DNA from: Acidobacteriota bacterium
GTDB lineage: Bacteria > Eisenbacteria > RBG-16-71-46 > SZUA-252
Direction of reading: 5' to 3'
NCBI GenBank assembly: GCA_035470985.1
Contig: DATIQI010000178.1
Coordinates: forward strand, 1-36,091
DNA length: 36,091 nucleotides
Positions 8,101 through 27,145 of this stretch are shown piece by piece. A model generated the notes under the pieces. That model was not told where the DNA came from, did no database searches, and worked only from the letters and a program-made list of their open reading frames with translations. The translations under genes and the position numbers were made by a program. Each line of letters opens with the position of its first letter. Position 1 is the first letter of the stretch.

Positions 8101-11100
8101 ACGTTGTAGCGGTAGTCGTCGCCGCTCGGATCGGGATTCAGGTTCGGGTCGTATCCCGTCTCCAGCGACGAGACCTTCCTGTCGAAGCCGGTGTCCTCGA
8201 AGACCTCGTTCGTCGGGTCGTCCGCCCCGTCCAGCTTCCCGTCGTTGTTCTTGTCCTCGGTGTCGAGGAGATTGTTCGGCGACTCCGCGGGGTGCCAGAA
8301 CGCGTCCTCGCTCACCGACCCCAGGTCGATGTGGAGCCTGGCTTTCGTCGTGGCGTGGTCCTTCCGAAGATCGTTCACCCAGATCTCCAGGAAGCGGACG
8401 CGCGAGAAGTCGAGCCCCGCGGCGGAGAGCGACTGGGTGAGGCCCGACCAGTCGGCCAGGGGGTCCACGGTCGTCTCGCCGGCCGGCGGCTTCACGTTCA
8501 GCTCCAGGACCTGGTGGGAATTGTTTCCGCCTTCGGCCTCGGTGAGGACCGGCTTCAAATCCCACTCCTTGGCCGCCGTTTCCGCCTCGGGGCGCGGGTT
8601 GTACCACTCGAGGCGCGCGTGGTCGGCGCCGAGATTCGAGAGCGTCGTGACGGCCAGGTTCGTGTCGGGCGGCAGGGTGACGCGGCGATTCACCGGCGTG
8701 CTGCTCCAGAACCACTGGAGGCGCCCCAGCCCGATCGTGTTCGACTCCCGGTTCCCTTCCATGTCGTCGATGTAGGCCTCGCCCTTCGTGTTCGGATTCG
8801 GGACGCTGGCCGAGAAGTTTCCCTGGATGTTCAGCGCCGAGGACTGGTCGGTCGTGATGCCCGGCACCTGGTCGGCCAGTCGCGTCATCCAGACCGGCCG
8901 GAAGGAGAGAACGGTGCCGAAGTCCCCGAGCATCGTGTGCGCCGGCTCCTCGCCCAGTTTCGGGTTCTGCTCGGAGGCGCCGCGCGACTCGTAGAGGAGA
9001 CTGCTGGAGAAGGAGAGGTTCGACGCGGGATTGTAGGCGCCCGACAGCCCCGCGAGGGTCCGCTGCACCTGGCCGAAGCCGGGCGCGTAGGAGAAGTCCA
9101 CCGTGATCACCTGCTGCGGTCCCGGCGGGGTGCGCAAGAAGGTCAGCTGGCCCGTCTGGTAGTCGATGCGGTAGTCGGAGTCGCGCGTCTGCGGGATGCC
9201 GTCCACCTTCACCTGCTCCGAGTTCTCCAGAATCCCGAACCGGCCGACGTAGTAGCCCTGCTGGCTGCTCCGGAACTCCGCTTCGATGTAGTAGCGCTCG
9301 TCCTTGTTCCGCTCGGGGAGGCGGTTGTAGTAGACGTTCGGATTCGCCCGCTCTCCGGTCAGGATGTTGCGGCGAAGGTCGTCGAGGCAGAGGAATCCGC
9401 CCCGCCCGGAGGCGCACGTCGAGTCGGGACCGGGCGCGAAGGGGTGGAGATCGGGGAAGAAGAGAATGCCGTCCGTCAGGTTCACGTACTGGTCGTCCAC
9501 CAGCCCGTCGGCGGCGAAGGGATCCTCCGACCCGGCCTTCGCCTGCTGGTCGAGCCCCACGATCCGGAGGATCGGCGTCCCCCCCACGTCGTCGGGGTCG
9601 GTCGCCGCCGTGTTGTCGATCCGCCGCAGCTTCACGGTGAGGGACGTCGGATCGATGTCGCGCCCCTGAAGGTCGTAGTAGTTCCGCAGCTCGTACTTCA
9701 GCGTCGAGTACCAGGGCCCCGCCGGATCGATGACATTGTTCGGGCCGTTCGGGAGATCGTTGATGCGCGGCTGAACGATCTTCAGGAGGACCTGCCCCGC
9801 TTCCTTTTCCAGGAGCGAGTCCACCTCGTCGCCGGTGAGCCCGATGCGGGTCGTGGTGGCGCCCTCGACGACGTCGTACGCGACGCCCAGGACCTGCGTC
9901 TCGCCCAGTTGGCTGCGTAGCTTGATGACCGGAATCCGAAGATCGCCCACGACGTCGGTGAGGACCCAGGGGTAGACGAGATCGAAGTCCACGCCGATGG
10001 TCAGGATCTGCCAGTAGCGGGACGGGAAGCTCGGATTCGTGAGCGAATCCCGCGGGGCCGTCGGATCGGGCCGCCCGACGCCGATGTTCAAATCCTGTTG
10101 CCCGCCCGGATTCGCCCGATAGACGCGGAGGTTCATGGTGCTCGTCTGGATCGGCGCGTCGTGGAAGAAGAAGTATGTCCGGCGGACGTAGTCGAGGTCG
10201 TAGATCCGGACCTGCCGGTTCTCGCCCGACGGCGTGAAGCGCGCCGTCTCGGTCTTCGCGTCCTGCTTGCTGGCGATGGCGGTCCAGTCGAAGTTCCCCA
10301 TCTTCATGACCGTCTTCACGCCGAAGAGACCCTCCTGCCGCAGCGACGCCCCCTGGAGCGACAGGTTGGTGTTCCCCAGCTCGATGGTCTTGATCATGTC
10401 GTCTTCGTCGCCTTCGTAGCGGAGCTTCACCCGGTTGTCCACGGAGGTGGTGACGTTGCTCGACTGGTCCACGTCCACCTTGATCTTGTCGCCGATCGAG
10501 CCGGTCAGATTGACGTTCAGCTCCTGCTTCATCTCGAAGGAGGGGAAGGCGCCCTGCCGCTTCCGCTCGCCGGTCAGGTCCTGGTAGATGCTCTTCTGCA
10601 CCGTCCAGTCGCTCGTGCCGACGATCGCGATCCGCTCGCTTCCCGAGACCTCGATGTTGGGGGCGCCGTCGCCGACGATGGAGCGGACCGCCTTGGGGAG
10701 CTGGACGGGGACCGTGAAGCGGAAGAGACCCCCCTGGCGGAGCCCCGCCTTGTTCACCGATCGGGTCGTCTGCGTCCGCTCGCGCCAGACCTTCCGGTAG
10801 GAGCGCTCGGAGAGGAGCTCGTTGTAGTCGAGGGCGCCGACGACCAGGGGCTCCCGCACCTCGACGCTCCCTTCCCGGTAGCGCTCCTGAACGACTCCCG
10901 TGGTCGGGTCGAGGGTCACCCGGACGCGGGCGGCGCCCGCCTCGAAGACCGCGGGGGGCGTCTGGAGGCGCCAGTTCGGAGGGAGTCCGTTCCCCATGGG
11001 AGGGGACATCGGATCGATGAGGAGCGCGGGATCCTGGAGCGCGCGGAATTCGAGGTCGGCGCGCGCGGAGGACGGGGCGACGGCGGAAGCCCCGAGCAGC

Positions 11101-11198
11101 GCCGCGGCGAACGCGAAAACCCCGAGCGCCACGGACCGAATGGTCCGGACCGGGCCCGCGGGGAATGACGGCCGAATGAAGCGACGAGCGATGGGCAT
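5103..11198 (-). CDS. sprA: SprA-family type IX secretion system outer-membrane translocon, ~2031 aa
   Basis: This is a giant ORF. Its SprA-type N-terminal region includes LNVNLTGSIGDKIKVDVDQSS...NRVKLRYEGDEDDMIKTIELGNTNLSLQG. A signal peptide follows the ATG at 11198 (MPIARRFIRPSF...VALGVFAFAAALLGASAVAPSSARA). The body is beta-rich and the C-terminus, ...FNAQFSF, is OMP-like. The track ORF extension to 11840 overlaps lptF and looks non-coding. Confidence 0.85.
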   Translation of the reverse strand: MPIARRFIRPSFPAGPVRTIRSVALGVFAFAAALLGASAVAPSSARADLEFRALQDPALLIDPMSPPMGNGLPPNWRLQTPPAVFEAGAARVRVTLDPTTGVVQERYREGSVEVREPLVVGALDYNELLSERSYRKVWRERTQTTRSVNKAGLRQGGLFRFTVPVQLPKAVRSIVGDGAPNIEVSGSERIAIVGTSDWTVQKSIYQDLTGERKRQGAFPSFEMKQELNVNLTGSIGDKIKVDVDQSSNVTTSVDNRVKLRYEGDEDDMIKTIELGNTNLSLQGASLRQEGLFGVKTVMKMGNFDWTAIASKQDAKTETARFTPSGENRQVRIYDLDYVRRTYFFFHDAPIQTSTMNLRVYRANPGGQQDLNIGVGRPDPTAPRDSLTNPSFPSRYWQILTIGVDFDLVYPWVLTDVVGDLRIPVIKLRSQLGETQVLGVAYDVVEGATTTRIGLTGDEVDSLLEKEAGQVLLKIVQPRINDLPNGPNNVIDPAGPWYSTLKYELRNYYDLQGRDIDPTSLTVKLRRIDNTAATDPDDVGGTPILRIVGLDQQAKAGSEDPFAADGLVDDQYVNLTDGILFFPDLHPFAPGPDSTCASGRGGFLCLDDLRRNILTGERANPNVYYNRLPERNKDERYYIEAEFRSSQQGYYVGRFGILENSEQVKVDGIPQTRDSDYRIDYQTGQLTFLRTPPGPQQVITVDFSYAPGFGQVQRTLAGLSGAYNPASNLSFSSSLLYESRGASEQNPKLGEEPAHTMLGDFGTVLSFRPVWMTRLADQVPGITTDQSSALNIQGNFSASVPNPNTKGEAYIDDMEGNRESNTIGLGRLQWFWSSTPVNRRVTLPPDTNLAVTTLSNLGADHARLEWYNPRPEAETAAKEWDLKPVLTEAEGGNNSHQVLELNVKPPAGETTVDPLADWSGLTQSLSAAGLDFSRVRFLEIWVNDLRKDHATTKARLHIDLGSVSEDAFWHPAESPNNLLDTEDKNNDGKLDGADDPTNEVFEDTGFDRKVSSLETGYDPNLNPDPSGDDYRYNVREAPDDYSTINNLELNGINDPNARPDTEDLNRDTFFDTRNSYFETSIDLADDQYVAIDIPNDPATSGLKVVYDNPLNGWRLFRIPVDGTTFRTIGAPNWQNIQHMRVWLSDMDQPLKIQLGGIEFVGSRWLEAAITDSNMVFRDVQLDIRTRNNKDDLGVYVPPYEVQNQVGNTADRREQSLALGYTRLEEGDTLLAYRTLGEPGTGLGWAQYRDIKFYVHGEAGVESQNLRALFRVGPDTLNYYEYSVPVRSDWQSILLPMEALSRLKEERPLDWPRFAPYVDSTSAAGTSEVFTVFGNPSFTRIIRLSFGLAVKGGAPGVPQSGEVWINELRLADVRKESGLSSNVSIQANFADLLAVNVSLAKQDEDFFRVGQGGNQGTGLNHTAIGFSTTLQVDRFMPTSGVSLPVRFSMQHSTDVPKFRTGSDVTLDADQSGIETRRLDQQSVDISYRRSSAIRRGLAKYTIDAFSGTMAYTRRGTVNPQSTDSSWSFSSSVGYDLPIGGGGVSLGKKFKLNLLPETIGFSAGWASSRAVAYSRSIFNDSVATELRSDAKVRLLTLGTTTSYVPFSSFRIQYNLTSQRDMLLKQESGLGFNKGMEVDHLQTVQVNYTPRWLAILQPNINLRARYHEDARPERRVAATDPLGLKNVDNQGGASVRFSVPISRLGRRGAARRAGPADTTGGGFSLLAPLGPVRYVLTKFQDVQTNFSFERAATLTRVTGDPGTAFKSGFSQVSDPTLLRLSGSNFTANRRYTTNLSTAFRPSTTVNVDIRADHALSYADQSFGERRTERIQWPDLKGRWSDLHRFLHLETALKNLTLQSGFSKVSDEEGPADGPTERRTKTRTFGPLLGWDMVFRNDVRASLSSSVTKATSIDDRAFGVERERQTTNTDVRLNKTFPASKGIKFPWSKNRVRLPNDLNLNLTVGLQGDRAVVRRAGERDYEETNQERLNVASGTTYNFTRTISGGFNFAYRQTHDKKLEVKNRGISVEFNAQFSF

Positions 11199-11321
11199 CC
11201 CTATTCGCGCTGAGGCACCCCCGGGGAGGCTGGGGCCCACGACATTCCTTGTACCCCTCGGGGTCGGCGAAGTTCGGATTGGAACCGATGCTCCTGGAAG
11301 GAGTTGGGGCCTAGGGGATGA

Positions 11322-11351
11322 TTGCGTCGCGTCGGCCGGGGTCCCTATACT
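11322..11351 (+). promoter_or_regulatory. Candidate sigma-70-type promoter for lptFG
   Basis: TTGCGT-N18-TATACT lies in the 190-bp divergent intergenic region, with the -10 element about 38 nt upstream of the lptF ATG. Confidence 0.3.
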
Positions 11352-11388
11352 GCGCCCAAGGCAGCCGAGGCCCTCCCCGGCGAACCGC

Positions 11389-12825
11389 ATGAGAATACTT
11401 GAACGATACGTCCTCCGCGAGCACGTCTTCCCGTTCCTGATCGGGTTCAGCGTCGTCGTGTTCCTGCTGACGCTCGACTTTCTGTTCGATCTGGTCGATC
11501 TGGCCATCGGGAAAGGCGTCAGCCTGACCATCGTGCTCGAGCTCTTCGTCCTCTCGCTCGGGTACATGGTGGCGCTCGCCTTTCCCTGCGCGGTCCTCAT
11601 CGCGACGCTCGCGGCCTTCGGCCGGCTCTCGCAGGACAACGAGATCGCGGCCATGCGGGCCACCGGCGTGAATCTGCTTCGCGTCATCGGAGCCCCGTTC
11701 GGCGCCGCGCTCGCCCTGGCGGGCCTCCTCGTCCTCTTCAACAACCACGTGCTCCCCGAGTCGAACCACGCGCTCGCGAATCTCATGGCCGACGTCGGCC
11801 GCAAGCGCCCCACCGCCCAGATCAGCGAAGGCGTCTTCATCGACGCCTTCGAGGGCTACAACATCTTCGTCGAGAAGGTGAACAACCGGACGAACGAGAT
11901 CCGGGGCGTGAAGATCTACCAGCTGAGCAGCACCGCCCGACCGACGACCATCCTGGCCGAGTGGGGCGTGATCCACAATTCCCCCGACGGCCGGGTGATG
12001 ACGCTCGAGCTGCACGACGGCGAGATCCACGAAGTGCCGCCGAACGACGCCGAGCGGATCTACCGGCGTCTCATGTTCAAGACGCATCTCATCAATATTC
12101 GGACGCCCGGGGCCGATCTGGAGCGGCGGGACCGGGTCGCCCGCGGCGACCGGGAGATGAACCTGACCATGATGCAGGACGCCATCCGAAAGCTCCGCAC
12201 CGACTTGGCCCAGGCGAAGGGGACCCGGGACCGGATCCTGGAGGGGGCCGGATTCGACTCCTATGAGTCCTTCGTGAAGGCCGCGATCCCCAACCCGCCC
12301 CCCCGCGGGGTGCAGGCCTGGCTCCGAAACGCCCTGCGGGCCCTGGGGTCGGTCGGCGTGATCGCGACCGGGCGGAGCGACCGGGGACGCGAGAGCACCG
12401 CCGTGCCGGTGATCGCCCCCGCCACGATGGACCTGATTCAAATGCGGCAGCTCGAGATCGACGCCTTGGAGCGCCGCCGGAACAGCCTGGAGGTGGAGGT
12501 GCAGAAGAAGTTCTCGATTCCCGCCGCGTGCCTCGTCTTCGTCCTCGTGGGGGCGCCGCTCGGCATGCGCGGGCGAAAGAGCGGCTTCGGGGTGGCGTTC
12601 CTCTCGATCCTCTTCTTCGTCTTCTACTACCTCTGCCTCGCGGGCGGCGAGGAGCTGGCGGACCGGCGGATCCTCACGCCCTGGTTCGCCATGTGGGTTC
12701 CGAACCTCGTGATCGGCGCGATCGGCTTCTGGCTGACGCTTCGCGCGGCGGAGCTGGTCCCGCGGCGCCCGCGCCGCCTCCGCGCCCGTCGCGGGCGCCG
12801 GGCCGCGCCGGCGGTCCCCGCGTGA
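11389..12825 (+). CDS. lptF: LptF/LptG-family (YjgP/YjgQ) lipopolysaccharide export permease
   Basis: The N-terminus MRILERYVLREHVFPFLIGFSVVVFLLTLDFL is the hallmark start of the family. It has three N-terminal TM segments, a large periplasmic insert and a C-terminal TM block (KKFSIPAACLVFVLVGAPLG...). It is paired with a second family member downstream. Confidence 0.85.
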   Translation: MRILERYVLREHVFPFLIGFSVVVFLLTLDFLFDLVDLAIGKGVSLTIVLELFVLSLGYMVALAFPCAVLIATLAAFGRLSQDNEIAAMRATGVNLLRVIGAPFGAALALAGLLVLFNNHVLPESNHALANLMADVGRKRPTAQISEGVFIDAFEGYNIFVEKVNNRTNEIRGVKIYQLSSTARPTTILAEWGVIHNSPDGRVMTLELHDGEIHEVPPNDAERIYRRLMFKTHLINIRTPGADLERRDRVARGDREMNLTMMQDAIRKLRTDLAQAKGTRDRILEGAGFDSYESFVKAAIPNPPPRGVQAWLRNALRALGSVGVIATGRSDRGRESTAVPVIAPATMDLIQMRQLEIDALERRRNSLEVEVQKKFSIPAACLVFVLVGAPLGMRGRKSGFGVAFLSILFFVFYYLCLAGGEELADRRILTPWFAMWVPNLVIGAIGFWLTLRAAELVPRRPRRLRARRGRRAAPAVPA

Positions 12826-13904
12826 AGATCCTCGACCGCTACGTCCTGCGGGAGACCCTGACGGCGCTCTTCGCGGGGCTCCTCTTCTTCGTCGCGGTCT
12901 TCATCGTGGTCGACATCTTCGAGAAGATCGACACGTACCTCGACAATCAGGTGCCGGTGGGCACGGTGCTCTCCTTCTACCTCATGAGCATCCCCGGCAT
13001 CGCGCTCCTCGTCCTCCCGATGGCGACTCTTCTCTCCTGCCTCCTCGCCCTGGGCCAGCTCGGCCGGACGAACGAGCTGAACGCCATGAGGACCGCGGGG
13101 TTCGGCCCCGGGCGGATCGCCGCGCCCCTGATCGGCATGGCGGCGCTCCTGAGCGGCGCGGCGTTCGTGGTGAACGAGGTGGTCCTTCCCGACCTGAACG
13201 CGAAGCGGCTCACGCTCTATCGCGTGGAGATCAAGAAGGAGGGCTCCGAGGGCGCGCAGGTCCGGTCCAATCTCGCCTACCTCGGGAGCGGCGGCCGGAC
13301 GTTTCTCATCCGGACGTACGACATCGCCCACCGCGAAATGCGGGAGGTCGTGATCCAGGAAGTGCACGACAACACGCTCGTCGGCCGGATCGACGCCGCC
13401 ACCGCGCGCTGGGAGAACGACCGGTGGATCTTCCGGAACGGCTACACGCGCCGCTTCGACGCGGGGGGCGAGACCGCCGCGCGCTTCACGGAGCTGACGA
13501 TCCCGGGCCTTCAGGAGGGGCCGGCCGACTTCGCCGAGGCGGAGGAGGATCCGAAGGCGCTCTCCTACTGGGAGCTGGAGCACTACATCGGACGGCTGAA
13601 ACAGAGCGGGAGCCGCGTGCAGCGCTACCTGGTCGAGCTCTACTTGAAGATCTCGTTCCCGCTCACGAATCTCATCGTGGTGGTCATCGGAGTGGCGCTC
13701 GCGCTCCGGAACCGGCGCGGCGGGCTCGCCCTCGCGTTCGGGCTCTCGGTCTTCATCTCGTTCCTCTACTACGCGGCGATCCGGACGGGGCAGGCGCTGG
13801 GACACAACGGCGCGCTTCCGCCCTTGCTGGGGGCGTGGCTGGGAAACCTCATCTTCGGAGCGCTGGCGCTGGAGCTCTTCCGGCGGGCGCGGCGGGGAGG
13901 CTAA
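12822..13904 (+). CDS. lptG: LptF/LptG-family lipopolysaccharide export permease
   Basis: The GTG start overlaps the lptF stop (GTGA). The protein begins VKILDRYVLRETLTALFAGLLFFVAVFIVVD, has a periplasmic beta-jellyroll-like middle and ends with a TM block (ISFPLTNLIVVVIGVALAL...). Confidence 0.85.
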   Translation: MKILDRYVLRETLTALFAGLLFFVAVFIVVDIFEKIDTYLDNQVPVGTVLSFYLMSIPGIALLVLPMATLLSCLLALGQLGRTNELNAMRTAGFGPGRIAAPLIGMAALLSGAAFVVNEVVLPDLNAKRLTLYRVEIKKEGSEGAQVRSNLAYLGSGGRTFLIRTYDIAHREMREVVIQEVHDNTLVGRIDAATARWENDRWIFRNGYTRRFDAGGETAARFTELTIPGLQEGPADFAEAEEDPKALSYWELEHYIGRLKQSGSRVQRYLVELYLKISFPLTNLIVVVIGVALALRNRRGGLALAFGLSVFISFLYYAAIRTGQALGHNGALPPLLGAWLGNLIFGALALELFRRARRGG

Positions 13905-19226: not shown

Positions 19227-20333
19227 CTAACTGCCGCGGACCAAGCTGTCCACCACCCGTTCGAGGGGGGTAAGCGACGGCAATGCAATCACTTTAGCCT
19301 TGCCGATCGCGGGGCACAATACCACTCGCACGCCCGCGCGTCCACGCTTCTTGTCCCGTAGGATCGCCTTCCAGAAGGAGGGTTTCACGCGCCGTCGAAG
19401 CGACGTCGGGAGTCCGAGCCGCTTCAGGAGCGCCACCACGCGGATGGCGTCCAGCGGATCGAGACCCGCGTCGATCACGCTCAACTCGAGCGCGGCCACC
19501 ATCCCGACCGCGACCGCCTCCCCGTGATGGAACCGCCGGTAGCCCTCGGACGCCTCCAGCGCGTGCCCCACCGTGTGACCGAAGTTGAGGACGCGCCGAA
19601 CGCCCTGGTCCCGCTCGTCGCGCGAGACGAACCACGCCTTCGAGACCGCGCAGGCGTGGACCAGCGGGGCGACCGCGCGCGGATCGAGCGCGCGGCCGCG
19701 GCGGGCGAGCGCCATGAGGCGCGTGAGAATGCTCGGGTCGCGGACGACGCCCATCTTCACCACCTCGGCCAGGCCGGAGCGGATCGCCCGCTTCGGAAGC
19801 GTGCGCAGCGCGTCGGGATCGGCGTAGACCGCGCGGGGATGGTGGAACGCTCCGACCAGGTTCTTCCCCGCGCGGAGGTTCACGCCCGTCTTCCCGCCGA
19901 TGGCGGCGTCGGCCTGCGCGAGGAGCGTGGTCGGGACCGCCACCCACGCGAGGCCGCGGCCGAACGCGGAGGCCGCGAAGCCGGCGACGTCGGAAACCAC
20001 CCCGCCGCCGAGCGCCACCACCACCGCGCTCTTCCCGAGACCGTCGCGCGCCCACGACTCGAAGAGGCGCGCCGCCACCGCCAGGTCCTTCGACGGCTCC
20101 CCCGGGGCGACCGTGTAGCGGCGCACGTCGCACCCCGCGGCGCGAAGGCTCCTCTCCACGCGGGCGGCGTAGAGGCGTCCGACGTTCCGGTCGGTCACCA
20201 GCGCGACGCTCGTCCCGGGCGCGAGCCCGATGTCGCGCTTCAGGCGGGGGCCGACGCGGCCGAGCAGACCGCGCTCCACGCGCACCTGGTAGCGCTGCGG
20301 CCGGCCGGGGATGGTGACGGGAATGGTCTTCAT
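19227..20333 (-). CDS. aroB: 3-dehydroquinate synthase
   Basis: From the internal ATG the sequence reads MKTIPVTIPGRPQRYQVRVERGLL...VVALGGGVVSDVAGFAASAFGRGL..VAVPTTLLAQADAAIGGKTGVN...NFGHTVGHALE...HGEAVAVGM, which are AroB signature blocks. The upstream part of track ORF 19227..21380 is a shadow of the neighbouring gene. Confidence 0.95.
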   Translation of the reverse strand: MKTIPVTIPGRPQRYQVRVERGLLGRVGPRLKRDIGLAPGTSVALVTDRNVGRLYAARVERSLRAAGCDVRRYTVAPGEPSKDLAVAARLFESWARDGLGKSAVVVALGGGVVSDVAGFAASAFGRGLAWVAVPTTLLAQADAAIGGKTGVNLRAGKNLVGAFHHPRAVYADPDALRTLPKRAIRSGLAEVVKMGVVRDPSILTRLMALARRGRALDPRAVAPLVHACAVSKAWFVSRDERDQGVRRVLNFGHTVGHALEASEGYRRFHHGEAVAVGMVAALELSVIDAGLDPLDAIRVVALLKRLGLPTSLRRRVKPSFWKAILRDKKRGRAGVRVVLCPAIGKAKVIALPSLTPLERVVDSLVRGS

Positions 20334-20341
20334 GGGCGGCG

Positions 20342-21361
20342 TCAACCTCCTCGCGCGGGCGCGATCGTCTCCGCGATCGCGTGGAGCTCGCGGAGATAGG
20401 GAAGCTTCGGACGGCCGGGCGCGAAGACGGCCAGATCGACCTGGATCCTCATCGTTCCCTTCGTCACCTCGTAGTAGCGATAGGGGCCGGCGGCGCTGAC
20501 GGCCGCGTCCTCCCAGCGGCCGTGCGACTGCCGCGTGGCGCCCGACATGACGTCGGGCGAGAGGAGCGGCTCGGAGACGTCGAGCGTCCGCTCGTCGGGC
20601 CGGAAGATCCGCGCCAGCGCCTCGCGCGCCGCGCGGACGTCCACCGGCGGCGGCTCGCCCGTGACGCGAAGGCGAAGGAGGCGCGCCGGGGGCCCCTCCT
20701 CGATCAGGAGCGCCGCGTGGCGCCCCCGGTCGAGGTGGAGGTGCATCCCGCGCGGCACGCGAAGCGCGACGCCGAGCGCCTCCTCCAGTTCGCGCTCGAT
20801 CGCCTCCGCCCGCGGGAGCGCGAGGAGTCGCTCGCGCACGCCCGCGAACGTCGCGCGGTCGAGCGCCTGGAAGAGTCGGTTTTGCGACGACGTGACGGCG
20901 GGAATCCACGCCTCCCGCGTCTCGGTCCAGACGAGGCCCGCGGTCTGGCCCCGGAGCCAGACGTCGGGCGTGAAGACGTAGGGGGCCGCGCCTTCGCCCG
21001 CGCCCTCGCCTTTCGCGTGCTTCGCGGCCGCTTCGTGCGCGCGCGCGGCCCACGCCGCGTGAAGCCGGCGGAACGGCTTCGGAATGGCGCGGGCTCCGCC
21101 GTAGCCGACGAGCACGACGTTCCGCGCCCGGTAGGCGCGCGCGTCGTCGGGCCCCACGGTGCGCACGACGTAGGCGGTCTCGTCGTCGATGCGGATGGCG
21201 GTCCGCTCCACGATGGCGCGGAGGAGGAGGATCTCGGGGGCGTCGGGCGGGAGCGAAGTCACGAGGGTCAGCTCGCGGCTCGACCCCTCGGCGAAGGGAC
21301 GGCCGCCGCACGAAACGGCGAACATGAGGATGAGCGTGGCGGCGAGGAGCCGGAGAGGCAT
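20342..21361 (-). CDS. Hypothetical lipoprotein (possibly DUF4837-like)
   Basis: It has a signal peptide with a lipobox (MPLRLLAATLILMFAVSCGG). The stop is 8 nt before the aroB start. The C-terminal GRWED...GPYRYYE...FAPGRPK..YLREL pattern is reminiscent of the bacteroidetal DUF4837 lipoprotein family. That family call is from memory and unverified. Confidence 0.6.
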   Translation of the reverse strand: MPLRLLAATLILMFAVSCGGRPFAEGSSRELTLVTSLPPDAPEILLLRAIVERTAIRIDDETAYVVRTVGPDDARAYRARNVVLVGYGGARAIPKPFRRLHAAWAARAHEAAAKHAKGEGAGEGAAPYVFTPDVWLRGQTAGLVWTETREAWIPAVTSSQNRLFQALDRATFAGVRERLLALPRAEAIERELEEALGVALRVPRGMHLHLDRGRHAALLIEEGPPARLLRLRVTGEPPPVDVRAAREALARIFRPDERTLDVSEPLLSPDVMSGATRQSHGRWEDAAVSAAGPYRYYEVTKGTMRIQVDLAVFAPGRPKLPYLRELHAIAETIAPARGG

Positions 21362-21467
21362 GACTATCGCAGGCTACCACACGCGTCGGGGAGCGGCCAG
21401 GAGACGGGGGGAGGATCCGGTCCCGCCACGCGGCGCGGGCGGGTGCGGCGCGACGCCGCGGAACGGC

Positions 21468-22715
21468 TCAGCGGCGCGGGGTCGCCTCGAGGGACTTCAG
21501 CCTTCGCTCCAGCCGGATCGACTCCTCGCGCAGGCTGTCGAGATGGGTCCGAAGCGATCGGATCTGCTCGGCGCGCGCGGGGGTCGGCCCCGACTCGCCG
21601 CCGATCACGCCGAGGACCGCCTTCACGGGGATGATCTCGGCATCGCGGAGGATCGTGAGGGCGATCTCGTCGCCGGGGTGCTTCGAGCGGACGAGCGACG
21701 TGATCTCCTCCGGCTGCGACATCTCGCGCCCCTCCATCGCGAGGATGCGGTCTCCGACGCGAATCCCGGCCGTCTCGGCGGGACTCCCGTTCCAGATCTT
21801 CACGACGCGCACGCCGAGCGAGTCGGCGGCGGACCCCACGACGAGCCCCACGCCGAGGAACGCGTGGCGCACCGCGCCGTAGGCCGCGAGATCGGAGACG
21901 ATGCGGTCCACCTGATCGACGGGGAGGGCGAGGAGAACGCTGTTCGGCTGGGGCGCCAGCTCTTCGGTTCCCGCCGGTCCGCGGTCCACGCCGTCCTCCT
22001 CGGACTCCGGACGGCTCGCCTGCGCGCGACCGACGACGATCGCGATCCACTCGCCGTCCTCGTTCAGCACGGCGGCGCCGGTCGAGCCGACGTAGGTCGG
22101 CGCGTCGATCTCCACGATCTCGCCGGCGTAGGGGAAGTCGATCCGCTCGCCGCGCCCGACGACGCGTCCCAGGGCGGCCTGCGGGCGCGTGATGGAGACG
22201 TTCGAGATGACCGCGACCCAGGACCCGACGGCGGACGACTGGGGCTGCGCGCGGCGAAGCGAGGGAAGAACGGCGCCGTCGATCTCGAAGAGCGCCAGAT
22301 TCGACGTCCGATCGACGCCGAGGAGGCGCGCCTCCTGCTCGGAGCCCTTGCCGCGGAGGACGCTCAGCGTCCCCCCGGGGAGCGCCATGCTGGCGGTGGT
22401 GATGAGCCGGCGCTCGTCGATGACGACGGCGCTCCCGATGAGGCGGCGGAGCTTCTCGCCCGGACGCGGCGGGCCGTAGCGCATCGGGTAGCCGACGACG
22501 GTGACGATGCTCTGGTTGGCGGCGTCCACGCCGTTCAGGAGGGTTCCCTCGTCCTCGCGGAGCGGACGGGTCTCCTGGGCGAGGAGCGCGGGGGGCGCCG
22601 CGGGGGGCGCGAGCGCGCCGGCGGCGATCAGGGCGAAAATAGCCGCGGCGCGGCGCACGAGGTTCCGCGCGCCGCGCCTTGGGAGGTCGCGGCTAGAACT
22701 CGATGTACACGTCAT
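21468..22715 (-). CDS. HtrA/DegS-like trypsin-fold + PDZ protein with a substituted catalytic triad (predicted pseudoprotease)
   Basis: It shows the S1C fold blocks GSAVVIDERRLITTASM, GVDRTSNLALFEI and IDAPTYVGSTGAAVLNEDGEWIAIVV. A PDZ domain follows (LGVRVVKIWNGSPAETAGIRVGDRILAMEG). The C-terminus is a heptad-like helix (QIRSLRTHLDSLREESIRLERRLKSLE). An alternative GTG start at 22658 gives MRRAAAIFALIAAGALA, a cleaner signal peptide that does not overlap the anti-sigma gene. Confidence 0.8.
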   Translation of the reverse strand: MTCTSSSSRDLPRRGARNLVRRAAAIFALIAAGALAPPAAPPALLAQETRPLREDEGTLLNGVDAANQSIVTVVGYPMRYGPPRPGEKLRRLIGSAVVIDERRLITTASMALPGGTLSVLRGKGSEQEARLLGVDRTSNLALFEIDGAVLPSLRRAQPQSSAVGSWVAVISNVSITRPQAALGRVVGRGERIDFPYAGEIVEIDAPTYVGSTGAAVLNEDGEWIAIVVGRAQASRPESEEDGVDRGPAGTEELAPQPNSVLLALPVDQVDRIVSDLAAYGAVRHAFLGVGLVVGSAADSLGVRVVKIWNGSPAETAGIRVGDRILAMEGREMSQPEEITSLVRSKHPGDEIALTILRDAEIIPVKAVLGVIGGESGPTPARAEQIRSLRTHLDSLREESIRLERRLKSLEATPRR

Positions 22716-23460
22716 CGGAGCCCCGATCCGTGACGGGTACGGCCGATGGCTGCTGCGCCCCGCCGGCCGCGCGGCCCCGCTGCAGGAGGAACTGGTCGGT
22801 GACGTACTCGTCGGTGAAGAGCGCGTTCGGATTCGGAAGGGCCGATTCCAGCTCGGTGCCCTGGCCCGGAGCGGCCCGGTCCACGATCTCGAGCACGCCG
22901 TTCGGCGCGTCGGCGCCGGTCAGGCTCGGCGTCGCGTCGGCCGGAGCGCGCCGCGAGGGCCGCGCGGGAGCCGAGGAGGCGACGACCACGGGCTCCGGCG
23001 TCACCGTCGCTTCGGCGGCGGGCGTCGCGTTGCCCGCCGGCGCGGTCACGGAAGGCGCCTGGCTCGACGAGGCGATCGGCCCGGTCCCGGGGGCGTTCGG
23101 GTCGCCGCGGTTCACGAAGAGGACCGCGAGCGCCAGCGCGCACGCCGCGGCGCCCGTCATGAAGACAGGGCGAAGGCGCGCGGGCTCCAGGAATCCCCGC
23201 AGCCACTCGATCACGGTCGGGCGCATCGCCTCGCCCGAGCGGATCCGATCCATCAGGTCGTCTTCGAAATGGGGGCTCGTCTCGACGACGGTCGCCTTCG
23301 CGGCGTCGCCCAGGAGCGCCAGCGCGCTCTTCATCTCGCGCAGCGAGTGCGAGCAGCGCCGGCAGCCGAGCAGATGCGCCTCGAACGAGCGACGCTCGGC
23401 CTGGCTCAGCGCGTCGTCGAGGAAATCGGAGAAGTGCGATTCGACGGACCGGCAGTTCAT
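22693..23460 (-). CDS. Anti-sigma factor, zf-HC2 type, single-pass membrane protein
   Basis: The ATG overlaps the sigma stop (ATGA). The N-terminus MNCRSVESHFSDFLDDALS...FEAHLLGCRRCSHSL carries the H-x3-C-x2-C zinc motif. A TM segment (VFMTGAAACALALAVLFV) and a Pro/Ala/Ser-rich periplasmic linker follow. A ~70-aa C-terminal region ends ...DDVYIEF. Confidence 0.85.
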   Translation of the reverse strand: MNCRSVESHFSDFLDDALSQAERRSFEAHLLGCRRCSHSLREMKSALALLGDAAKATVVETSPHFEDDLMDRIRSGEAMRPTVIEWLRGFLEPARLRPVFMTGAAACALALAVLFVNRGDPNAPGTGPIASSSQAPSVTAPAGNATPAAEATVTPEPVVVASSAPARPSRRAPADATPSLTGADAPNGVLEIVDRAAPGQGTELESALPNPNALFTDEYVTDQFLLQRGRAAGGAQQPSAVPVTDRGSDDVYIEF

Positions 23461-24083
23461 ACGTCCTCCACGCTCAGATGGGGCCGCAGTCGCTCCTTCA
23501 GCATCAGCCGCGCGCGGTTGATGCGCGAGCGCACCGTGCCGCCGGGGATGCGGAGAATCTGCCCCACTTCTTCGTAACTGAGACCTTCGATGTCCCGAAG
23601 CACCACCGCCTCGCGATAGCGAGGGGGAAGTTTGCGGAGCGCTTCGGCGACCTTCGACCGGATCTCTCCGGCGTTCAGGTCTTCGTCGGGCAAGGGATTC
23701 TGGTCGGGAAACGGCAGCCCCTGGCCGCCCGTCTCTTCTTCGAGGGCGTCGAGGCTGAAGGTGCCTTTGTGCCGGACCCGACTCCGGATCTCGTTCTTCG
23801 TCAGGTTCACCGCGATGGTGAAGATCCACGTGGAGAACTTGCCGCTCTTGCGATAGCGCTCGCGATTGCGGAAGACGCGCAGGAAGACTTCTTGGGAAAT
23901 CTCCTCCGCGCGGTCGCGGTCGTTGATGAACCGCGACACCAGATTCATGATCCGACCGCGATAGCGCTGCACGAGCGCGCGAAACGCGATCTCGGAGCCC
24001 GTGGCGCAGCGCTCCATCACGTCTTCGTCGCTCAGCTCGGACAGCGTGTCGAGCCGTTTCAATCGCACGAGCTCCAGTGGCAC
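23457..24083 (-). CDS. ECF (sigma-70 family, group 4) RNA polymerase sigma factor
   Basis: Region 2 reads AFRALVQRYRGRIMNLVSRFINDRDRAEEISQEVFLRVF...FSTWIFTIAVNL. Region 4 reads LPPRYREAVVLRDIEGLSYEEVGQILRIPGGTVRSRINRARLMLKE. The start is GTG with GGAGGG about 5 nt upstream. Confidence 0.93.
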   Translation of the reverse strand: MPLELVRLKRLDTLSELSDEDVMERCATGSEIAFRALVQRYRGRIMNLVSRFINDRDRAEEISQEVFLRVFRNRERYRKSGKFSTWIFTIAVNLTKNEIRSRVRHKGTFSLDALEEETGGQGLPFPDQNPLPDEDLNAGEIRSKVAEALRKLPPRYREAVVLRDIEGLSYEEVGQILRIPGGTVRSRINRARLMLKERLRPHLSVEDV

Positions 24084-24103
24084 GTCAGCCCTCCAGGTTC
24101 ATG

Positions 24104-24134
24104 CATTCGTACCCCGGCCGGTGAGGCAGGTTCC
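24104..24134 (-). promoter_or_regulatory. Candidate ECF-type autoregulatory promoter
   Basis: The minus strand reads GGAACC, then about 17 nt, then a GTACGAAT-like element, roughly 20-50 nt upstream of the sigma GTG. The -35 GGAAC matches the common ECF -35 element; the -10 assignment is weak. Confidence 0.25.
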
Positions 24135-24195: not shown

Positions 24196-25911
24196 TCAGG
24201 GGGCCTGGAAGAGGGAGATTCCGGCCGGCTTCGTCGTCGCCCGCGGCGCCTTGGAGCGCCCCTCGGCCTCCCGCGCCTCGTTCTCGAGGCGGAGGCTGCG
24301 GCAGACGTCGGCCAGTATCTTGTTGGCGTCCAACGAACTCTCGGGACAGTCGGCCGCCCGGCGGAGGAGTTCCCGGGCGAGTTCCAGCTGACCCATCTCC
24401 CGGCGGAGCCGGCCCAAGAGGAGCAACGCCTTGCCGTTCTTGGGGTTGAGCACGACGGCCCGGTCGAGCGAAGCGATGGCCCGCTCGGGCTTCCCCTTGG
24501 CGAGGCTGGTCGAGGCGAGGAAGGTCAGACATTCGGAGGTCTCTCCACCCGATTCGACGAGCCGCTCGAACGCCCACTCGGCGAGGAGCCTGTCGCCCAT
24601 CGCCTCGGCCGCCGACCCCAGTTCCTGGTAGAGCGAGGGGCTGGCGATGCCGCGCGACGCGCTGTCGCGAATGAGGGCGACGGCCTCTCCGGGATACCCG
24701 AGGAGAGCGTAGCACAGGCTCGCGGCCAGCACCTGGCGGGGGGTTTCGAAGCCGACCGCGCGGGCCGACTCGAGGAGCGCCACGCCCCGGCGCTCGCTCC
24801 CCCTGCGGATCTCGAGGTAGGCCACCACGAGCGACTCTTCACGCGAGACGCCCGTCACCGGCAGGAGCCGGCGGTACTGCTCGAGCGCCTCGCCTTCGTC
24901 GCCCAGGGAGACCGCCGCCCTGGCCCGCAAGGCCGTGGCCCGCGTGTCCGAAACCAGAGGCTTCACGATTTCGGTCGCCTCTCGGCTCCAGCCGGCGCGG
25001 AAGAGTTCCAGGCCCGCGTCCACGCGAAGATCCCCCTCGGGGATCCCGCGCGACGCGGCCCAGCGAATCAGCTGCTTGAAGGCGTCCTTCTTCCCGGTCC
25101 GGTGCAGGAGCGCGCCGTACGCCGCCACGTCGGCGACGCGGGCGTCGGGGAGGAGCGCGAGCGAGCGGAGGAGCGTCTCCTCCAGCACGAGATCGCCGCT
25201 CGCCTGGGCGAATTGAACGCCGAGAGTAAGGACGCGCGGATCATCGGGCCGGAGTTCGAGCGCGAGTTCGAGGGCCTGCTTCGCTTCCTCCAACCGCCCA
25301 TCCTCGAGCGCCAGACTGAGGGTACCGGTGGCGATCCACGCGAAATCGGGGAGGAGAATGTCGGTCCGCTTCAAGTCCGCCAGGGCGGCCTCGTAGCGCC
25401 GCGCCAGCTCGTGGGCCAAAGCCCGGAGCCCGTACAGCTCGGGCGGCGCGCCCAGCTGCCTCAGAGGAGGGGTCAGGACCTGCACCGCGCCCGCCGCTTC
25501 CCCGGCGCGGAGCCGCATCCGGCCCACGAGCATCGCCGCGTCGACGTTCGCGCTGTCGCGCGCGAGCGCCTTCTCGCCCCAGGCGAGGGCTTCGAAATCC
25601 TGGCCCATCGTCTCGTAGAGGACGGCCACGCGCGCGTGCGCGAAGGCGCTGGCCGGACGGTACGCGGCGAGCGACTCGGCCCAGGCGATCGCGCCTTCGG
25701 CGTCGCCGGCCGCTTCGGCCAATTCGGAGCGCGCGAGGAGGGTCAGGTCGGGAGGGGGGAGCAAGCGGTATTGGGCATGCGCCGACGGCGCCGCCAAGAA
25801 CGCGAACGAAAGCGCCAAACCGAGGACTGTCACCGGAACCGCCCTTTGAACTCCCACCCCGATTCGCACCAGTCGTCTCCATATCCAGAAAAGGGAACGA
25901 GGAAGGCCCAT
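24196..25911 (-). CDS. Secreted TPR-repeat protein
   Basis: It has a signal peptide (…VLGLALSFAFLAAPSAHAQ) followed by many TPR-like helical hairpins along its length (e.g. AEGAIAWAESLAAYRP, FEALAWGEKALARDSANV, LEEAKQALELALELRPDDP, PERAIASLDRAVVLNPKNGKALLLLGRL). A GGGGAGGAAGG RBS precedes the ATG. Confidence 0.75.
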   Translation of the reverse strand: MGLPRSLFWIWRRLVRIGVGVQRAVPVTVLGLALSFAFLAAPSAHAQYRLLPPPDLTLLARSELAEAAGDAEGAIAWAESLAAYRPASAFAHARVAVLYETMGQDFEALAWGEKALARDSANVDAAMLVGRMRLRAGEAAGAVQVLTPPLRQLGAPPELYGLRALAHELARRYEAALADLKRTDILLPDFAWIATGTLSLALEDGRLEEAKQALELALELRPDDPRVLTLGVQFAQASGDLVLEETLLRSLALLPDARVADVAAYGALLHRTGKKDAFKQLIRWAASRGIPEGDLRVDAGLELFRAGWSREATEIVKPLVSDTRATALRARAAVSLGDEGEALEQYRRLLPVTGVSREESLVVAYLEIRRGSERRGVALLESARAVGFETPRQVLAASLCYALLGYPGEAVALIRDSASRGIASPSLYQELGSAAEAMGDRLLAEWAFERLVESGGETSECLTFLASTSLAKGKPERAIASLDRAVVLNPKNGKALLLLGRLRREMGQLELARELLRRAADCPESSLDANKILADVCRSLRLENEAREAEGRSKAPRATTKPAGISLFQAP

Positions 25912-25946: not shown

Positions 25947-25975
25947 ATTATAGCGGCTTAGTTCTCGCCGCGCAA
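25947..25975 (-). promoter_or_regulatory. Candidate strong sigma-70-type promoter (TTGCGC-N17-TATAAT)
   Basis: The minus strand reads TTGCGCggcgagaactaagccgcTATAAT. The -35 element lies inside the last codons of rnc. The -10 is a perfect consensus hexamer in an AT-rich pocket of the 46-nt rnc/TPR spacer, about 35 nt before the TPR ATG. Confidence 0.45.
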
Positions 25976-27145
25976 GCTCGATGACCCTACGGGCGGCTCG
26001 TTCGTCCCTTCTCCGCCTCCCGGCGACTCGCCTCCGGAGGGCGTTCCCTCCGTCCGGCCCTCGCCGCGCCCCTTCCCGCCCCGGCGGCCGCGTCCTCCGC
26101 GACGCCGGCGACGCCGTCCGTCGCGGTCGGTGCCCCGTTCCCGCTCGATCCGGTCGGCCGCGGCCTCCGCCGCCTCCGCCGTCTCACCGCCGCGAGCCGG
26201 ACGCGACTCGCTCCGGTCGTTCCCATGCCGCTCGCGCCCCTCGCGCCCTTCCTTCCCCTCGCGCCCTTCCCGGCCTTCTCGGCCTTCGCGACCTTCCCGG
26301 CCTTCCCGGCCTTCCCGGCCGTTCCGTCCGCCGCGGTGCGGCGCCGCGCGCCGCTCCGGCCGTCCGGTGGCCTTCTCGAAGTGGAGGAGCGCGTCGCGTG
26401 CCGCTTCCTGCTCGGCCTCCTTCTTGTTCTTGCCGTGCCCGCGACCGATGGTCTTCCCCGAGACGACCACCTCCACCGTGAAGAGCTTCTGGTGGTCGGG
26501 GCCGTTCTCGCTGGAGATCCGGTACTGGGGGTGGCTCTTGAATTCGCCCTGCACGAACTCCTGCAGCATCGACTTGTAGTTCGCCAGGTCGGCGTCGCTG
26601 AGGATCGTGTGGACTTCCTTGAGGAGGAGCCGCGCCGTGAGCTGCCGCGCCGGCTCCAGCCCGCCGTCCAAGTAGATCGCCCCGATCACCCCTTCCAGCG
26701 TGTCCGCGAGGATGGAGGCGCGGCTCCGGCCCCCCGATCCCCGCTCGGCCTCGCTGAGGAGGATGTAGTGCCCGAGGCCCATCTGGCTCGCGACGCGGGA
26801 GAGGATGACGCGGCTCACGAGGAGCGACTTCATCTTCGTCATCTCGCCTTCGCGGAGCTTCGTGAATTTCTTGTAGAGGAATTCGTTCACCACGAGGCCC
26901 ACCACCGAGTCGCCGAGGAACTCCAGGCGCTCGTTCGACTCCCCGCCGCGGCCGGGGGCCGCGTGGAGGTACGAACGGTGGGTCATGGCCAGGCGCGCGA
27001 GCGACGCGTCCTTGAACTTGTAGTGGACGCAGCGCTCCAGCCCGCGCAGATCGAAATCGCGGTCCTTGCCGCGAGGGGCCGGCGCCGCGGGGCGCTCCAG
27101 CCCGAAGAGCTTTCTTAGGAATTGCACGATGTCGGACGCCGCCAC
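25958..27145 (-). CDS. rnc: Ribonuclease III with a ~137-aa Arg/Gly/Glu-rich C-terminal extension
   Basis: The RNase III signature NERLEFLGDSVVGLVV is present, as is the second acidic site LADTLEGVIGAIYLDGG. The dsRBD reads YKSMLQEFVQ...PQYRI...GPDHQKLFTVEV...GRGHGKNKKEAEQEAARDAL. The start is GTG with GGAGGA 10 nt upstream. Confidence 0.93.
   Translation of the reverse strand: MAASDIVQFLRKLFGLERPAAPAPRGKDRDFDLRGLERCVHYKFKDASLARLAMTHRSYLHAAPGRGGESNERLEFLGDSVVGLVVNEFLYKKFTKLREGEMTKMKSLLVSRVILSRVASQMGLGHYILLSEAERGSGGRSRASILADTLEGVIGAIYLDGGLEPARQLTARLLLKEVHTILSDADLANYKSMLQEFVQGEFKSHPQYRISSENGPDHQKLFTVEVVVSGKTIGRGHGKNKKEAEQEAARDALLHFEKATGRPERRAAPHRGGRNGREGREGREGREGREGREGREGKEGREGRERHGNDRSESRPARGGETAEAAEAAADRIERERGTDRDGRRRRRRGGRGRRGGKGRGEGRTEGTPSGGESPGGGEGTNEPPVGSSSLRGEN
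26236..26327. repeat. Imperfect 9-bp tandem repeat (~10 units, core ccttcccgg x3 perfect), in-frame within rnc
   Basis: A 9-nt periodicity is visible from ~26236. Three perfect copies lie at ~26292-26318. On the minus strand the tract encodes GREGREGREGREGREGREGKEGREGRE. Confidence 0.8.

Follow-up and report, generated by a model that had tools for sequence, protein, structure and literature searches.

The 36,091-nucleotide (nt) contig DATIQI010000178.1 of assembly GCA_035470985.1 (this whole stretch is "the window" below) encodes an extracytoplasmic function (ECF) sigma factor, a zf-HC2 anti-sigma factor, and an HtrA-like protein, in that order, which together with a promoter-like motif lie on the minus strand within 21468-24134. 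By its sequence, the HtrA-like protein is a genuine, ancient pseudoprotease that is catalytically dead. The trio is syntenic in two clades of Candidatus Eisenbacteria, in Zixibacteria, and in three unclassified lineages (L030, L111, and L117). We propose that the genes form a core, autoregulated, sigma-E-type envelope-stress operon in which the PDZ domain of the pseudoprotease caps the tail of the anti-sigma factor, and in which the C-termini of unassembled outer membrane proteins (OMPs) displace the pseudoprotease; we put the probability of this reading at roughly 0.4. The arrangement suggests that the cell detects stress through binding and competition instead of proteolytic cleavage.

All three catalytic positions of the HtrA-like protein are replaced. 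We aligned a profile built from 80 family members with solved chains of DegP, DegQ, and HtrA: the catalytic His corresponds to S109 ("ilTTASl" on "ILTNNHV"), the catalytic Asp to N139 ("qSNiAl" on "rSDVAV"), and the nucleophilic Ser to T212 ("pGatGgA" on "PGNAGG/PGNSGG"). These are exactly the positions that a preliminary description of this DNA, made by eye from the sequence, had proposed. (One single-sequence alignment moved the His position to M110.) The S1C triad motifs TNxHV, D[IL]A[LV], and GNSGG are not found in the protein. Furthermore, the protease domain does not contain any His, as the three His in the protein all lie in the PDZ domain and the C-terminal helix. The features of the gene, with the evidence for each, are as follows.

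21468-22715, minus strand: exported HtrA/DegS-like pseudoprotease, 415 amino acids (aa), or 396 aa if it starts at V20 (Pfam, profile alignment, AlphaFold2 [AF2], Foldseek)
22023-22508, minus strand: trypsin-fold domain without a catalytic triad, residues 70-231 (Pfam Trypsin_2; Foldseek)
22389-22391, minus strand: Ser109 codon, at the catalytic His position (profile alignment)
22299-22301, minus strand: Asn139 codon, at the catalytic Asp position (profile alignment)
22080-22082, minus strand: Thr212 codon, at the nucleophilic Ser position, where GSTGA replaces GNSGG (profile alignment)
21615-21938, minus strand: PDZ domain, residues 260-367 (Pfam PDZ_2, PDZ_6, and PDZ; AF2)
21849-21869, minus strand: PDZ carboxylate-binding loop RHAFLGV (family alignment; solved HtrAs)
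21486-21575, minus strand: C-terminal coiled-coil helix, residues 381-410 (AF2; heptad register)

The clade of the window (clade A) is represented by 121 sequences with 48-100% identity. None of them has the catalytic His, which is replaced by Ser in 119, and every one has Asn in place of the Asp. Where the nucleophile would be, 86 carry Thr, 33 carry Ser, and 2 carry Ala. All 120 sequences from the second Eisenbacteria clade (clade B) have Ser, Asn, and Ser at these positions. Their nucleophilic Ser is kept within GNSG[GA] or a close variant, as it is in the Zixibacteria representatives P0358 and P0305, and the L111 protein has Ile at this position. His is absent from the catalytic position in the roughly 240 homologues of clades A and B, and we found no conserved His or Lys in the protease domain. 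P0358, P0305, and 12 other distant relatives that we read are all His-less as well. We searched 1.84 billion representatives exhaustively with HMMER, and clade A formed a tight island, below which are distant, single-PDZ, His-less proteins, mostly with a coiled coil. Because the replacement residues are nearly invariant, the site appears to be repurposed (for binding) rather than decayed. The preliminary description had named three outcomes that would count against it, namely a triad elsewhere in the protein, orthologues with a canonical triad, and a trio that is not conserved, and none of these appeared.

The protein retains the rest of the HtrA architecture. Pfam identifies a Trypsin_2 domain (E = 2.7e-14) and a single PDZ domain (PDZ_2, E = 1e-12). 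The AF2 model, with a mean predicted local distance difference test score (pLDDT) of 80.7, has AlgW, DegS, DegP, DegQ, and MucD as its best Foldseek matches (E ~ 1e-21), which agrees with the DegS-like fold that the preliminary description had asked to have modeled and compared. The protein thus has the arrangement that defines the HtrA (MEROPS S1C) fold, a chymotrypsin/trypsin fold with one or more PDZ domains after it. The PDZ domain was said to be kept, and indeed it has a canonical, conserved carboxylate-binding loop (R/K-x-x-x-Φ-G-Φ), which reads RHAFLGV in the window and has the family consensus RRGFLGV. Within the pattern R-x-[AG]-[FY]-L-G-[VI], L287 and G288 are invariant and R283 and F286 are at least 90% conserved, and the loop aligns with RGYLGV and RGWLGV of solved HtrAs. 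The coiled coil that had been predicted at the C-terminus is visible as an AF2 helix (residues 381-410) with a clean a/d heptad (I384, L387, L391, L394, L401, L405, and L408), and it is found in most of the aligned distant relatives. The loop equivalent to L3 is strongly conserved (G187, R188, G189, E190, R191, and D193), and so are the N-terminal elements that form the trimer.

The protein falls well below the described HtrA equivalogs. It scores 63.1 bits (curated cutoff 408) and 57.6 bits (cutoff 422.95) for the DegS equivalogs NF008147 and TIGR02038, and 90.9 bits (cutoff 416.2) for the Do family of DegP and MucD (TIGR02037), from which it also differs in having one PDZ domain rather than two and in lacking the triad. 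Judged by these profiles, it is an HtrA-fold non-peptidase homologue outside the DegS, DegP, and MucD equivalogs.

The N-terminus of the pseudoprotease resembles a cleavable signal peptide: it has a hydrophobic helix (residues 20-35), after which the homologues have AxA-like sites (LLA/QE, ARA/ID, and SHA/VP). The start codon is either M1 or V20, and a 23-nt overlap between the anti-sigma and HtrA-like genes hinges on this choice. NCBI's start is V20 (GTG, ~22658). The conserved N-terminus "MTCTS(S/P)S" of many homologues is a +1-frame reading of the anti-sigma tail D[DG]VYI[ET]F* (22693-22715). The true start may be the downstream GTG at V20, and gene callers probably extend many of the homologous open reading frames (ORFs) too far.

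The preliminary description had placed the three genes in one co-directional unit, and this holds: all three are on the minus strand at the stated positions, with Pfam matches for their proteins. The sigma stop and the anti-sigma start do share an ATGA overlap (23460-23457; the anti-sigma factor begins MNCRS), and the overlap on the HtrA side depends on the start codon. A survey of related genomes for the trio and the triad substitutions, which had been recommended, found both conserved across deep lineages; roughly 45 loci were collected in all. In clade A, the sigma and anti-sigma genes are directly upstream of the pseudoprotease in all 25 loci with enough flanking sequence. The order in clade B is a tetratricopeptide repeat (TPR) protein, sigma, zf-HC2, Trypsin_2/PDZ, aroB, aroQ, and accB. 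In L030, it is acpP, fabF, rnc, two opposite-strand genes (one encoding a FadL-type OMP), sigma, anti-sigma, HtrA-like, and aroB. Sigma, zf-HC2, and HtrA-like genes are together in 12/12 Zixibacteria loci with upstream sequence, and in L111 and L117 they are followed by a DUF4837 gene. (L030, L111, and L117 are metagenome-assembled genomes [MAGs] without a taxonomic label.) We rejected the idea that the distant His-less relatives are paralogues: they occupy the same syntenic position, which makes them positional orthologues.

Other genes next to the sigma factor vary. A FadL/Toluene_X-type OMP gene adjoins it in L030 (2357-3757) and in the Zixibacteria locus L043 (2161-3438), where Eisenbacteria have the TPR gene. 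In L111 (1907-2740) and L117 (1358-2119), a 250-280-aa ORF without a Pfam match precedes it; the two have C-terminal motifs in common, as judged by eye, and might form a fifth component specific to these lineages. At one further locus (L114 1643-3000, on contig_31000 of the long-read metagenome ENA ERZ25039533), frameshifts disrupt both the sigma and the anti-sigma gene and leave the pseudoprotease intact, which is most likely an assembly error and not biology.

The sigma factor and its promoter are as follows.

23457-24083, minus strand: ECF sigma factor, 208 aa, RpoE/SigW-like (Pfam, NCBIfam)
24110-24134, minus strand: predicted ECF-type promoter GGAAC-N14-GGGGTA, ~27 nt 5' of the sigma start (motif conservation across loci)

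The sigma factor belongs to the ECF group (group IV): it has sigma-2 and sigma-4 domains only (Sigma70_r2, E = 3.5e-17; r4_2, E = 1.8e-17) and scores 107.5 bits for TIGR02937 (sigma70-ECF, cutoff 42.9). It is RpoE-like without being an RpoE equivalog (143.9 bits for TIGR02939, cutoff 236.15), and it is 84-95% identical across clade-A loci. Each of the 26 clade-A loci (26/26) has a single copy of the motif GGAAC-N14-17-G[GT]GTA, always 5' of sigma; the copy in the window is at 24134-24110. An equivalent GGAAC(TT)-N15-16-xGTA lies 5' of sigma in clade B, Zixibacteria, and L111. We predict that the motif is the autoregulated ECF promoter of the operon, as would be expected for a system of this type.

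The anti-sigma gene has the following features.

22693-23460, minus strand: single-pass zf-HC2 anti-sigma factor, 255 aa (Pfam, AF2)
23353-23454, minus strand: zf-HC2 anti-sigma domain, residues 3-36 (Pfam; invariant residues)
23110-23184, minus strand: transmembrane helix, residues 93-117 (AF2 helix; hydrophobic segment in the alignment)
22840-23109, minus strand: variable periplasmic linker rich in Pro, Ala, Ser, and Thr, residues 118-207 (predicted disordered)
22696-22839, minus strand: conserved C-terminal module with DEYxxDxF, RG, VPV, and the tail, residues 208-255 (invariant residues)
22696-22716, minus strand: aromatic tail DDVYIEF-COOH (resembles an OMP beta-signal or a PDZ ligand)

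With its zf-HC2 domain (E = 3.4e-10, residues 3-36), in which H29-x3-C33-x2-C36 is invariant among the homologues, and its single transmembrane helix, the protein is a Class I zf-HC2 anti-sigma factor. The alignment and the AF2 model indicate cytoplasmic helices at residues 6-56, 65-74, and 83-90, a transmembrane helix at 93-117, and a periplasmic part at 118-255. The periplasmic part is predicted to be disordered, with pLDDT below 50 over most of the linker. The linker (residues 118-207) fails to align between loci, and conservation in the periplasmic part is limited to short motifs and the tail. The C-terminal module has invariant D217, Y219, D222, F224, P242, V243, I253, and F255 and is also predicted to be unstructured. 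Overall, the protein is anchored in the inner membrane, and its periplasmic tether is about 70-140 residues long. The most conserved stretch of the protein, above even the zinc finger, is a cytoplasmic segment just before the membrane (residues 63-82, PHFEDDLMDRIRSGEAMRP, 23215-23274), with invariant F65, R72, R74, S75, G76, E77, R80, and P81. This segment could represent helix IV of the anti-sigma domain, or else site-2 or cytoplasmic proteases may recognize it.

The anti-sigma factor does end in ...DDVYIEF-COOH, as first described, and nothing else in its disordered periplasmic part persists as widely as this aromatic end. Of 120 clade-A homologues, 117 are full-length, and every one of these has a C-terminal Phe; the other three are short or incomplete sequences of 146-203 aa. 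Ile occupies position -2 in 115 of the 117, and T, E, Q, V, or I is found at position -1. Because position -2 is fixed and position -1 is variable, it is one face of a terminal beta-strand that is conserved, as would be seen for a PDZ or beta-strand ligand. The tails elsewhere are AVITF or AVISF in clade B, VYVAF in L030, ..KTDY, ..RRDF, and ..KSSF in Zixibacteria, PDDF in L111, and GDAF in L117, so that the terminal aromatic residue is the sole tail feature common to all lineages. We rejected the explanation that the tail is conserved merely as a by-product of the gene overlap, because the aromatic end is kept where the anti-sigma and HtrA-like genes do not overlap. As a motif, the C-terminus is of the Φ-x-F type, and so are the beta-signals at the ends of this organism's OMPs: SprA ends in ..FNAQFSF, and FadL-like proteins end in ..TAYRF and ..ATFRF.

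A disordered, single-pass anti-sigma factor cannot plausibly carry a conformational signal across the membrane, so control by proteolysis is likely, and if so, the simplest role for the pseudoprotease is as a protective cap that is displaced by free OMP C-termini. We infer from adjacency and conservation that its PDZ domain binds the tail and shields the anti-sigma factor. For comparison, the PDZ domain of DegS reads OMP C-termini (PMC8103513) and that of AlgW reads the C-terminus of MucE (PMC8545111). Also, partner binding is described to guard an anti-sigma factor from proteolysis by Prc in cell-surface signaling (PMC11637429 and PMC10392083). In the unstressed cell, the PDZ domain of the pseudoprotease would bind the anti-sigma tail, and the VPV and DEYxxDxF motifs might also be held in the former substrate cleft. 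This capping would guard the C-terminus and the disordered chain from periplasmic proteases (e.g., tail-specific Prc/Ctp-type enzymes) and would keep the anti-sigma factor too bulky for the site-2 protease. As unassembled OMPs build up, their free C-termini would compete for the PDZ domain, the anti-sigma tail would be freed and trimmed, and intramembrane proteolysis would then release the sigma factor. Finally, sigma would boost transcription of the operon, including the pseudoprotease, and the system would be reset. More broadly, and more doubtfully, a protease family of the DegS/AlgW type, which ordinarily initiates regulated intramembrane proteolysis, might have been turned into a non-catalytic receptor, with competitive displacement as a distinct logic for sigma-E signaling that is carried by a core-genome operon across Eisenbacteria, Zixibacteria, and other lineages.

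Several observations weigh against capping and displacement. First, an HtrA gene in a sigma-E operon also fits a pure effector, as for mucD. Second, a different PDZ protein, a TPR protein, or the beta-barrel assembly machinery (BAM) could just as well be the reader of the tail. Third, the Zixibacteria tails (..KTDY and ..RRDF) differ in PDZ-ligand class from I-x-F, with only the terminal aromatic residue being universal. Fourth, clade B and Zixibacteria keep the nucleophilic Ser and GNSGG, which leaves room for some non-canonical chemistry.

The first of these points leads to an alternative that we consider somewhat unlikely, which is that the pseudoprotease is an effector or buffer. A holdase derived from MucD or DegP would bind unfolded OMPs via its PDZ domain and dead cleft, and it would be in the operon only as a member of the regulon. 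By sequestering OMP C-termini it would damp the signal, giving negative feedback without degradation, and the anti-sigma tail would be read by an unlinked active protease (DegS/AlgW-like or Ctp). The conserved cleft residues and PDZ domain suit client binding, and protease-dead DegP (S210A) retains chaperone activity. The pseudoprotease gene would be driven by the same single ECF promoter, and operons of the rpoE-rseA-mucD type carry HtrA-family proteins as part of the regulon or as negative regulators (PMC4229105). However, if the protein were an effector, we would not have an explanation for the co-occurrence of an aromatic anti-sigma tail and the pseudoprotease in every lineage examined, nor for why proteolysis, from which an effector benefits, disappeared a single time and did not return in any of these lineages.

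It is less likely that the pseudoprotease is an adaptor or activator that presents the disordered anti-sigma factor to an active protease, either by joining an active HtrA paralogue in a mixed trimer or by handing the chain to a Ctp/Prc enzyme. In that case it would regulate positively, its PDZ domain would still sense OMP C-termini, and its DegS-like allosteric loops would still switch. Such a role could account for the conserved L3-equivalent loop and trimer-forming elements, and the coiled coil could recruit a partner; also, degenerate HtrA domains serve in oligomerization in plant DEG7 (PMC3194040). On the other hand, we identified no active paralogue or partner, and no second protease gene is linked to the trio in any of the loci inspected (clade A, clade B, L030, Zixibacteria, and L117), although this covers the loci only, as the genomes were not searched for active HtrA, RseP, or Ctp.

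We consider it improbable that the anti-sigma factor reports directly on BAM, with its tail as a beta-signal mimic that reaches BamD/BamA at the outer membrane on the disordered tether and the pseudoprotease as a competitor for, or chaperone of, that tail. The local OMP ends are of the Φ-x-F type, like the tail, LptF/G and SprA in the window show that there is an outer membrane, and by our own estimate a disordered linker of ~70-140 residues could span the periplasm. Yet the linkers of L030 and L111 are short, no bam genes are linked in any locus, and the idea is purely speculative. Still less probable is residual proteolysis of a non-canonical kind, in which the Ser and GNSGG, retained in all 120 clade-B sequences and in both Zixibacteria representatives that we read, would be served by a different base or by a His supplied by the substrate. 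Serine proteases engineered to lack the His can rely on one from their substrate. However, the nucleophile position varies within the window's own clade and is Ile in L111, and no His or Lys of the protease domain is conserved to serve as the base. We rejected substrate-assisted catalysis in particular, because no His is conserved across lineages in the periplasmic module of the anti-sigma factor. Finally, we set aside a recently decayed copy or an annotation or assembly artifact, for which we found no supporting point, given the ~240 homologues with the same substitutions and intact reading frames, the confident AF2 fold, and the synteny across several deep lineages.

The closest known system is RpoE-RseA-RseB/DegS/RseP of E. 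coli, which also has an autoregulated ECF sigma factor, a GGAAC-type -35 element, a co-transcribed single-pass anti-sigma factor, a one-PDZ protein of the DegS/AlgW fold, and aromatic Φ-x-F C-termini as the class of ligand (PMC8103513). In contrast, E. coli DegS is active, membrane-anchored, and unlinked to rpoE, whereas the homologue described here lacks the His and Asp, has a coiled coil, is encoded in the operon, and probably has a cleavable signal peptide. Also unlike in E. coli, the aromatic C-terminus is on the anti-sigma factor itself, which is of the zf-HC2 class and not RseA_N, and the locus lacks an RseB/MucB homologue. (None of the locus proteins that we scanned matched the RseB/MucB family, so that an RseB-like role for the pseudoprotease, as had been suggested, is by analogy only.)

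Sigma, anti-sigma, and HtrA genes are also combined in one sigma-dependent operon in AlgU-MucA-MucB-MucC-MucD of P. aeruginosa and in rpoE-rseA-mucD of Xanthomonas and Stenotrophomonas (PMC4229105). The preliminary description knew of no such layout, which goes too far: the order is familiar from operons with active proteases of the MucD type. But MucD is a two-PDZ, DegP-type protease, and the protein described here has one PDZ domain, no triad, and a coiled coil. P. aeruginosa also has a dedicated aromatic C-terminal signal, that of MucE, which is read by the AlgW PDZ domain (PMC8545111). MucE is a separate protein, whereas here the MucE- or OMP-like signal is fused to the anti-sigma factor.

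There are also parallels for the proposed logic and for the loss of catalysis. RseB/MucB, or the TonB-dependent transducers that shield cell-surface signaling anti-sigma factors from Prc, are periplasmic partners that block site-1 proteolysis until there is a signal (PMC8103513; PMC11637429). Their folds are unrelated to this one, and here the protector would derive from the very protease family that normally makes the site-1 cut. MamO of magnetotactic bacteria is a trypsin-fold relative of HtrA whose triad is degenerate and which has taken on a binding role (PMC4794232), but it is an integral protein of the magnetosome membrane that binds metal for biomineralization and has no link to sigma or anti-sigma factors. 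In plant DEG7 and other degenerate Deg/HtrA domains, catalysis has been lost and the domain is kept for protein-protein contacts (PMC3194040); unlike here, the dead domain of DEG7 is fused to an active one for oligomerization, and the system is eukaryotic and without sigma signaling. What differs here is the systematic loss of the triad with the fold, the PDZ domain, and the loops kept, the combination of a single PDZ domain with a coiled coil, and the OMP-like signal on the anti-sigma factor. We found no description of a conserved module of a pseudoprotease and an OMP-mimic tail in the searchable literature, and the main text of the ECF reclassification paper, to which this statement is limited, does not mention HtrA, trypsin, or PDZ (PMC7826278).

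Two neighboring genes that the preliminary description thought might belong to the module are accessory, not core.

20342-21361, minus strand: DUF4837 lipoprotein, accessory fourth gene (Pfam DUF4837)
24196-25911, minus strand: secreted TPR protein, syntenic neighbor upstream of the ECF promoter (TPR families)

The TPR protein is probably outside the operon unit, because the predicted ECF promoter sits between its gene and sigma. It is present in Eisenbacteria clades A and B only, and it is absent upstream in L030, the Zixibacteria locus L043, L111, and L117. The lipoprotein recurs in three lineages, downstream of the pseudoprotease: it is present in about 20 loci of clade A, in L111, and in L117 (pairwise E = 5e-17 between the window and L111; Pfam E-values down to 3e-29), but it is absent in clade B and L030 and was not detected by tblastn in the Zixibacteria loci. 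Its sequence had only chance-level matches in the PDB.

The surroundings of the operon are core housekeeping genes (nusA, lptF/G, accC, aroQ, aroB, rnc, fabF/G/D, plsX, and sucD) and an SprA-like gene of the type IX secretion system (T9SS). This last gene is a 2245-aa ORF (5103-11840, minus strand) with an SprA_N domain of the type IX translocon and the C-terminus ..FNAQFSF; together with LptF/G at 12528-13904, it implies that this organism has a diderm envelope with a T9SS. The record is labeled as Acidobacteriota bacterium, and most of the named close relatives and syntenic loci are labeled as Candidatus Eisenbacteria, so the taxonomic label of the MAG looks wrong or outdated. The RNase III ORF (25958-27145, minus strand) has a long, low-complexity C-terminal extension of tandem REG repeats (GREGREGREGREGREGREGKEGREG) and then a tail rich in Arg and Gly, and its tblastn matches in relatives mostly end around residue 258-270. 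The mechanically called ORF that includes aroB (19227-21380, minus strand; 717 aa) overlaps the DUF4837 gene, and its match to 3-dehydroquinate synthase is confined to the C-terminal ~370 aa (~19227-20339). The GC content of the window is 70%, and long, spurious ORFs that run across genuine genes are common on either strand.

Sigma-E, RseA, and DegS are the classic example of a pathway in which stress is sensed through activation of a protease. In the operon described here, a homologue of the sensor protease is clearly non-catalytic, as judged by its sequence, yet it has stayed coupled to a sigma and anti-sigma pair across deep bacterial lineages. The annotation of several hundred database entries as "S1C family serine protease" is probably wrong as to function. 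If capping and competition is correct, then the same OMP signal can be transduced without a dedicated site-1 protease, and this would be a natural case of a pseudoenzyme that replaces an enzyme in a signaling cascade. The PDZ domain and peptide tail would also be a small, portable sensor module for synthetic reporters of envelope stress. For candidate phyla that are known solely from metagenomes, the operon offers a first functional handle on envelope homeostasis.

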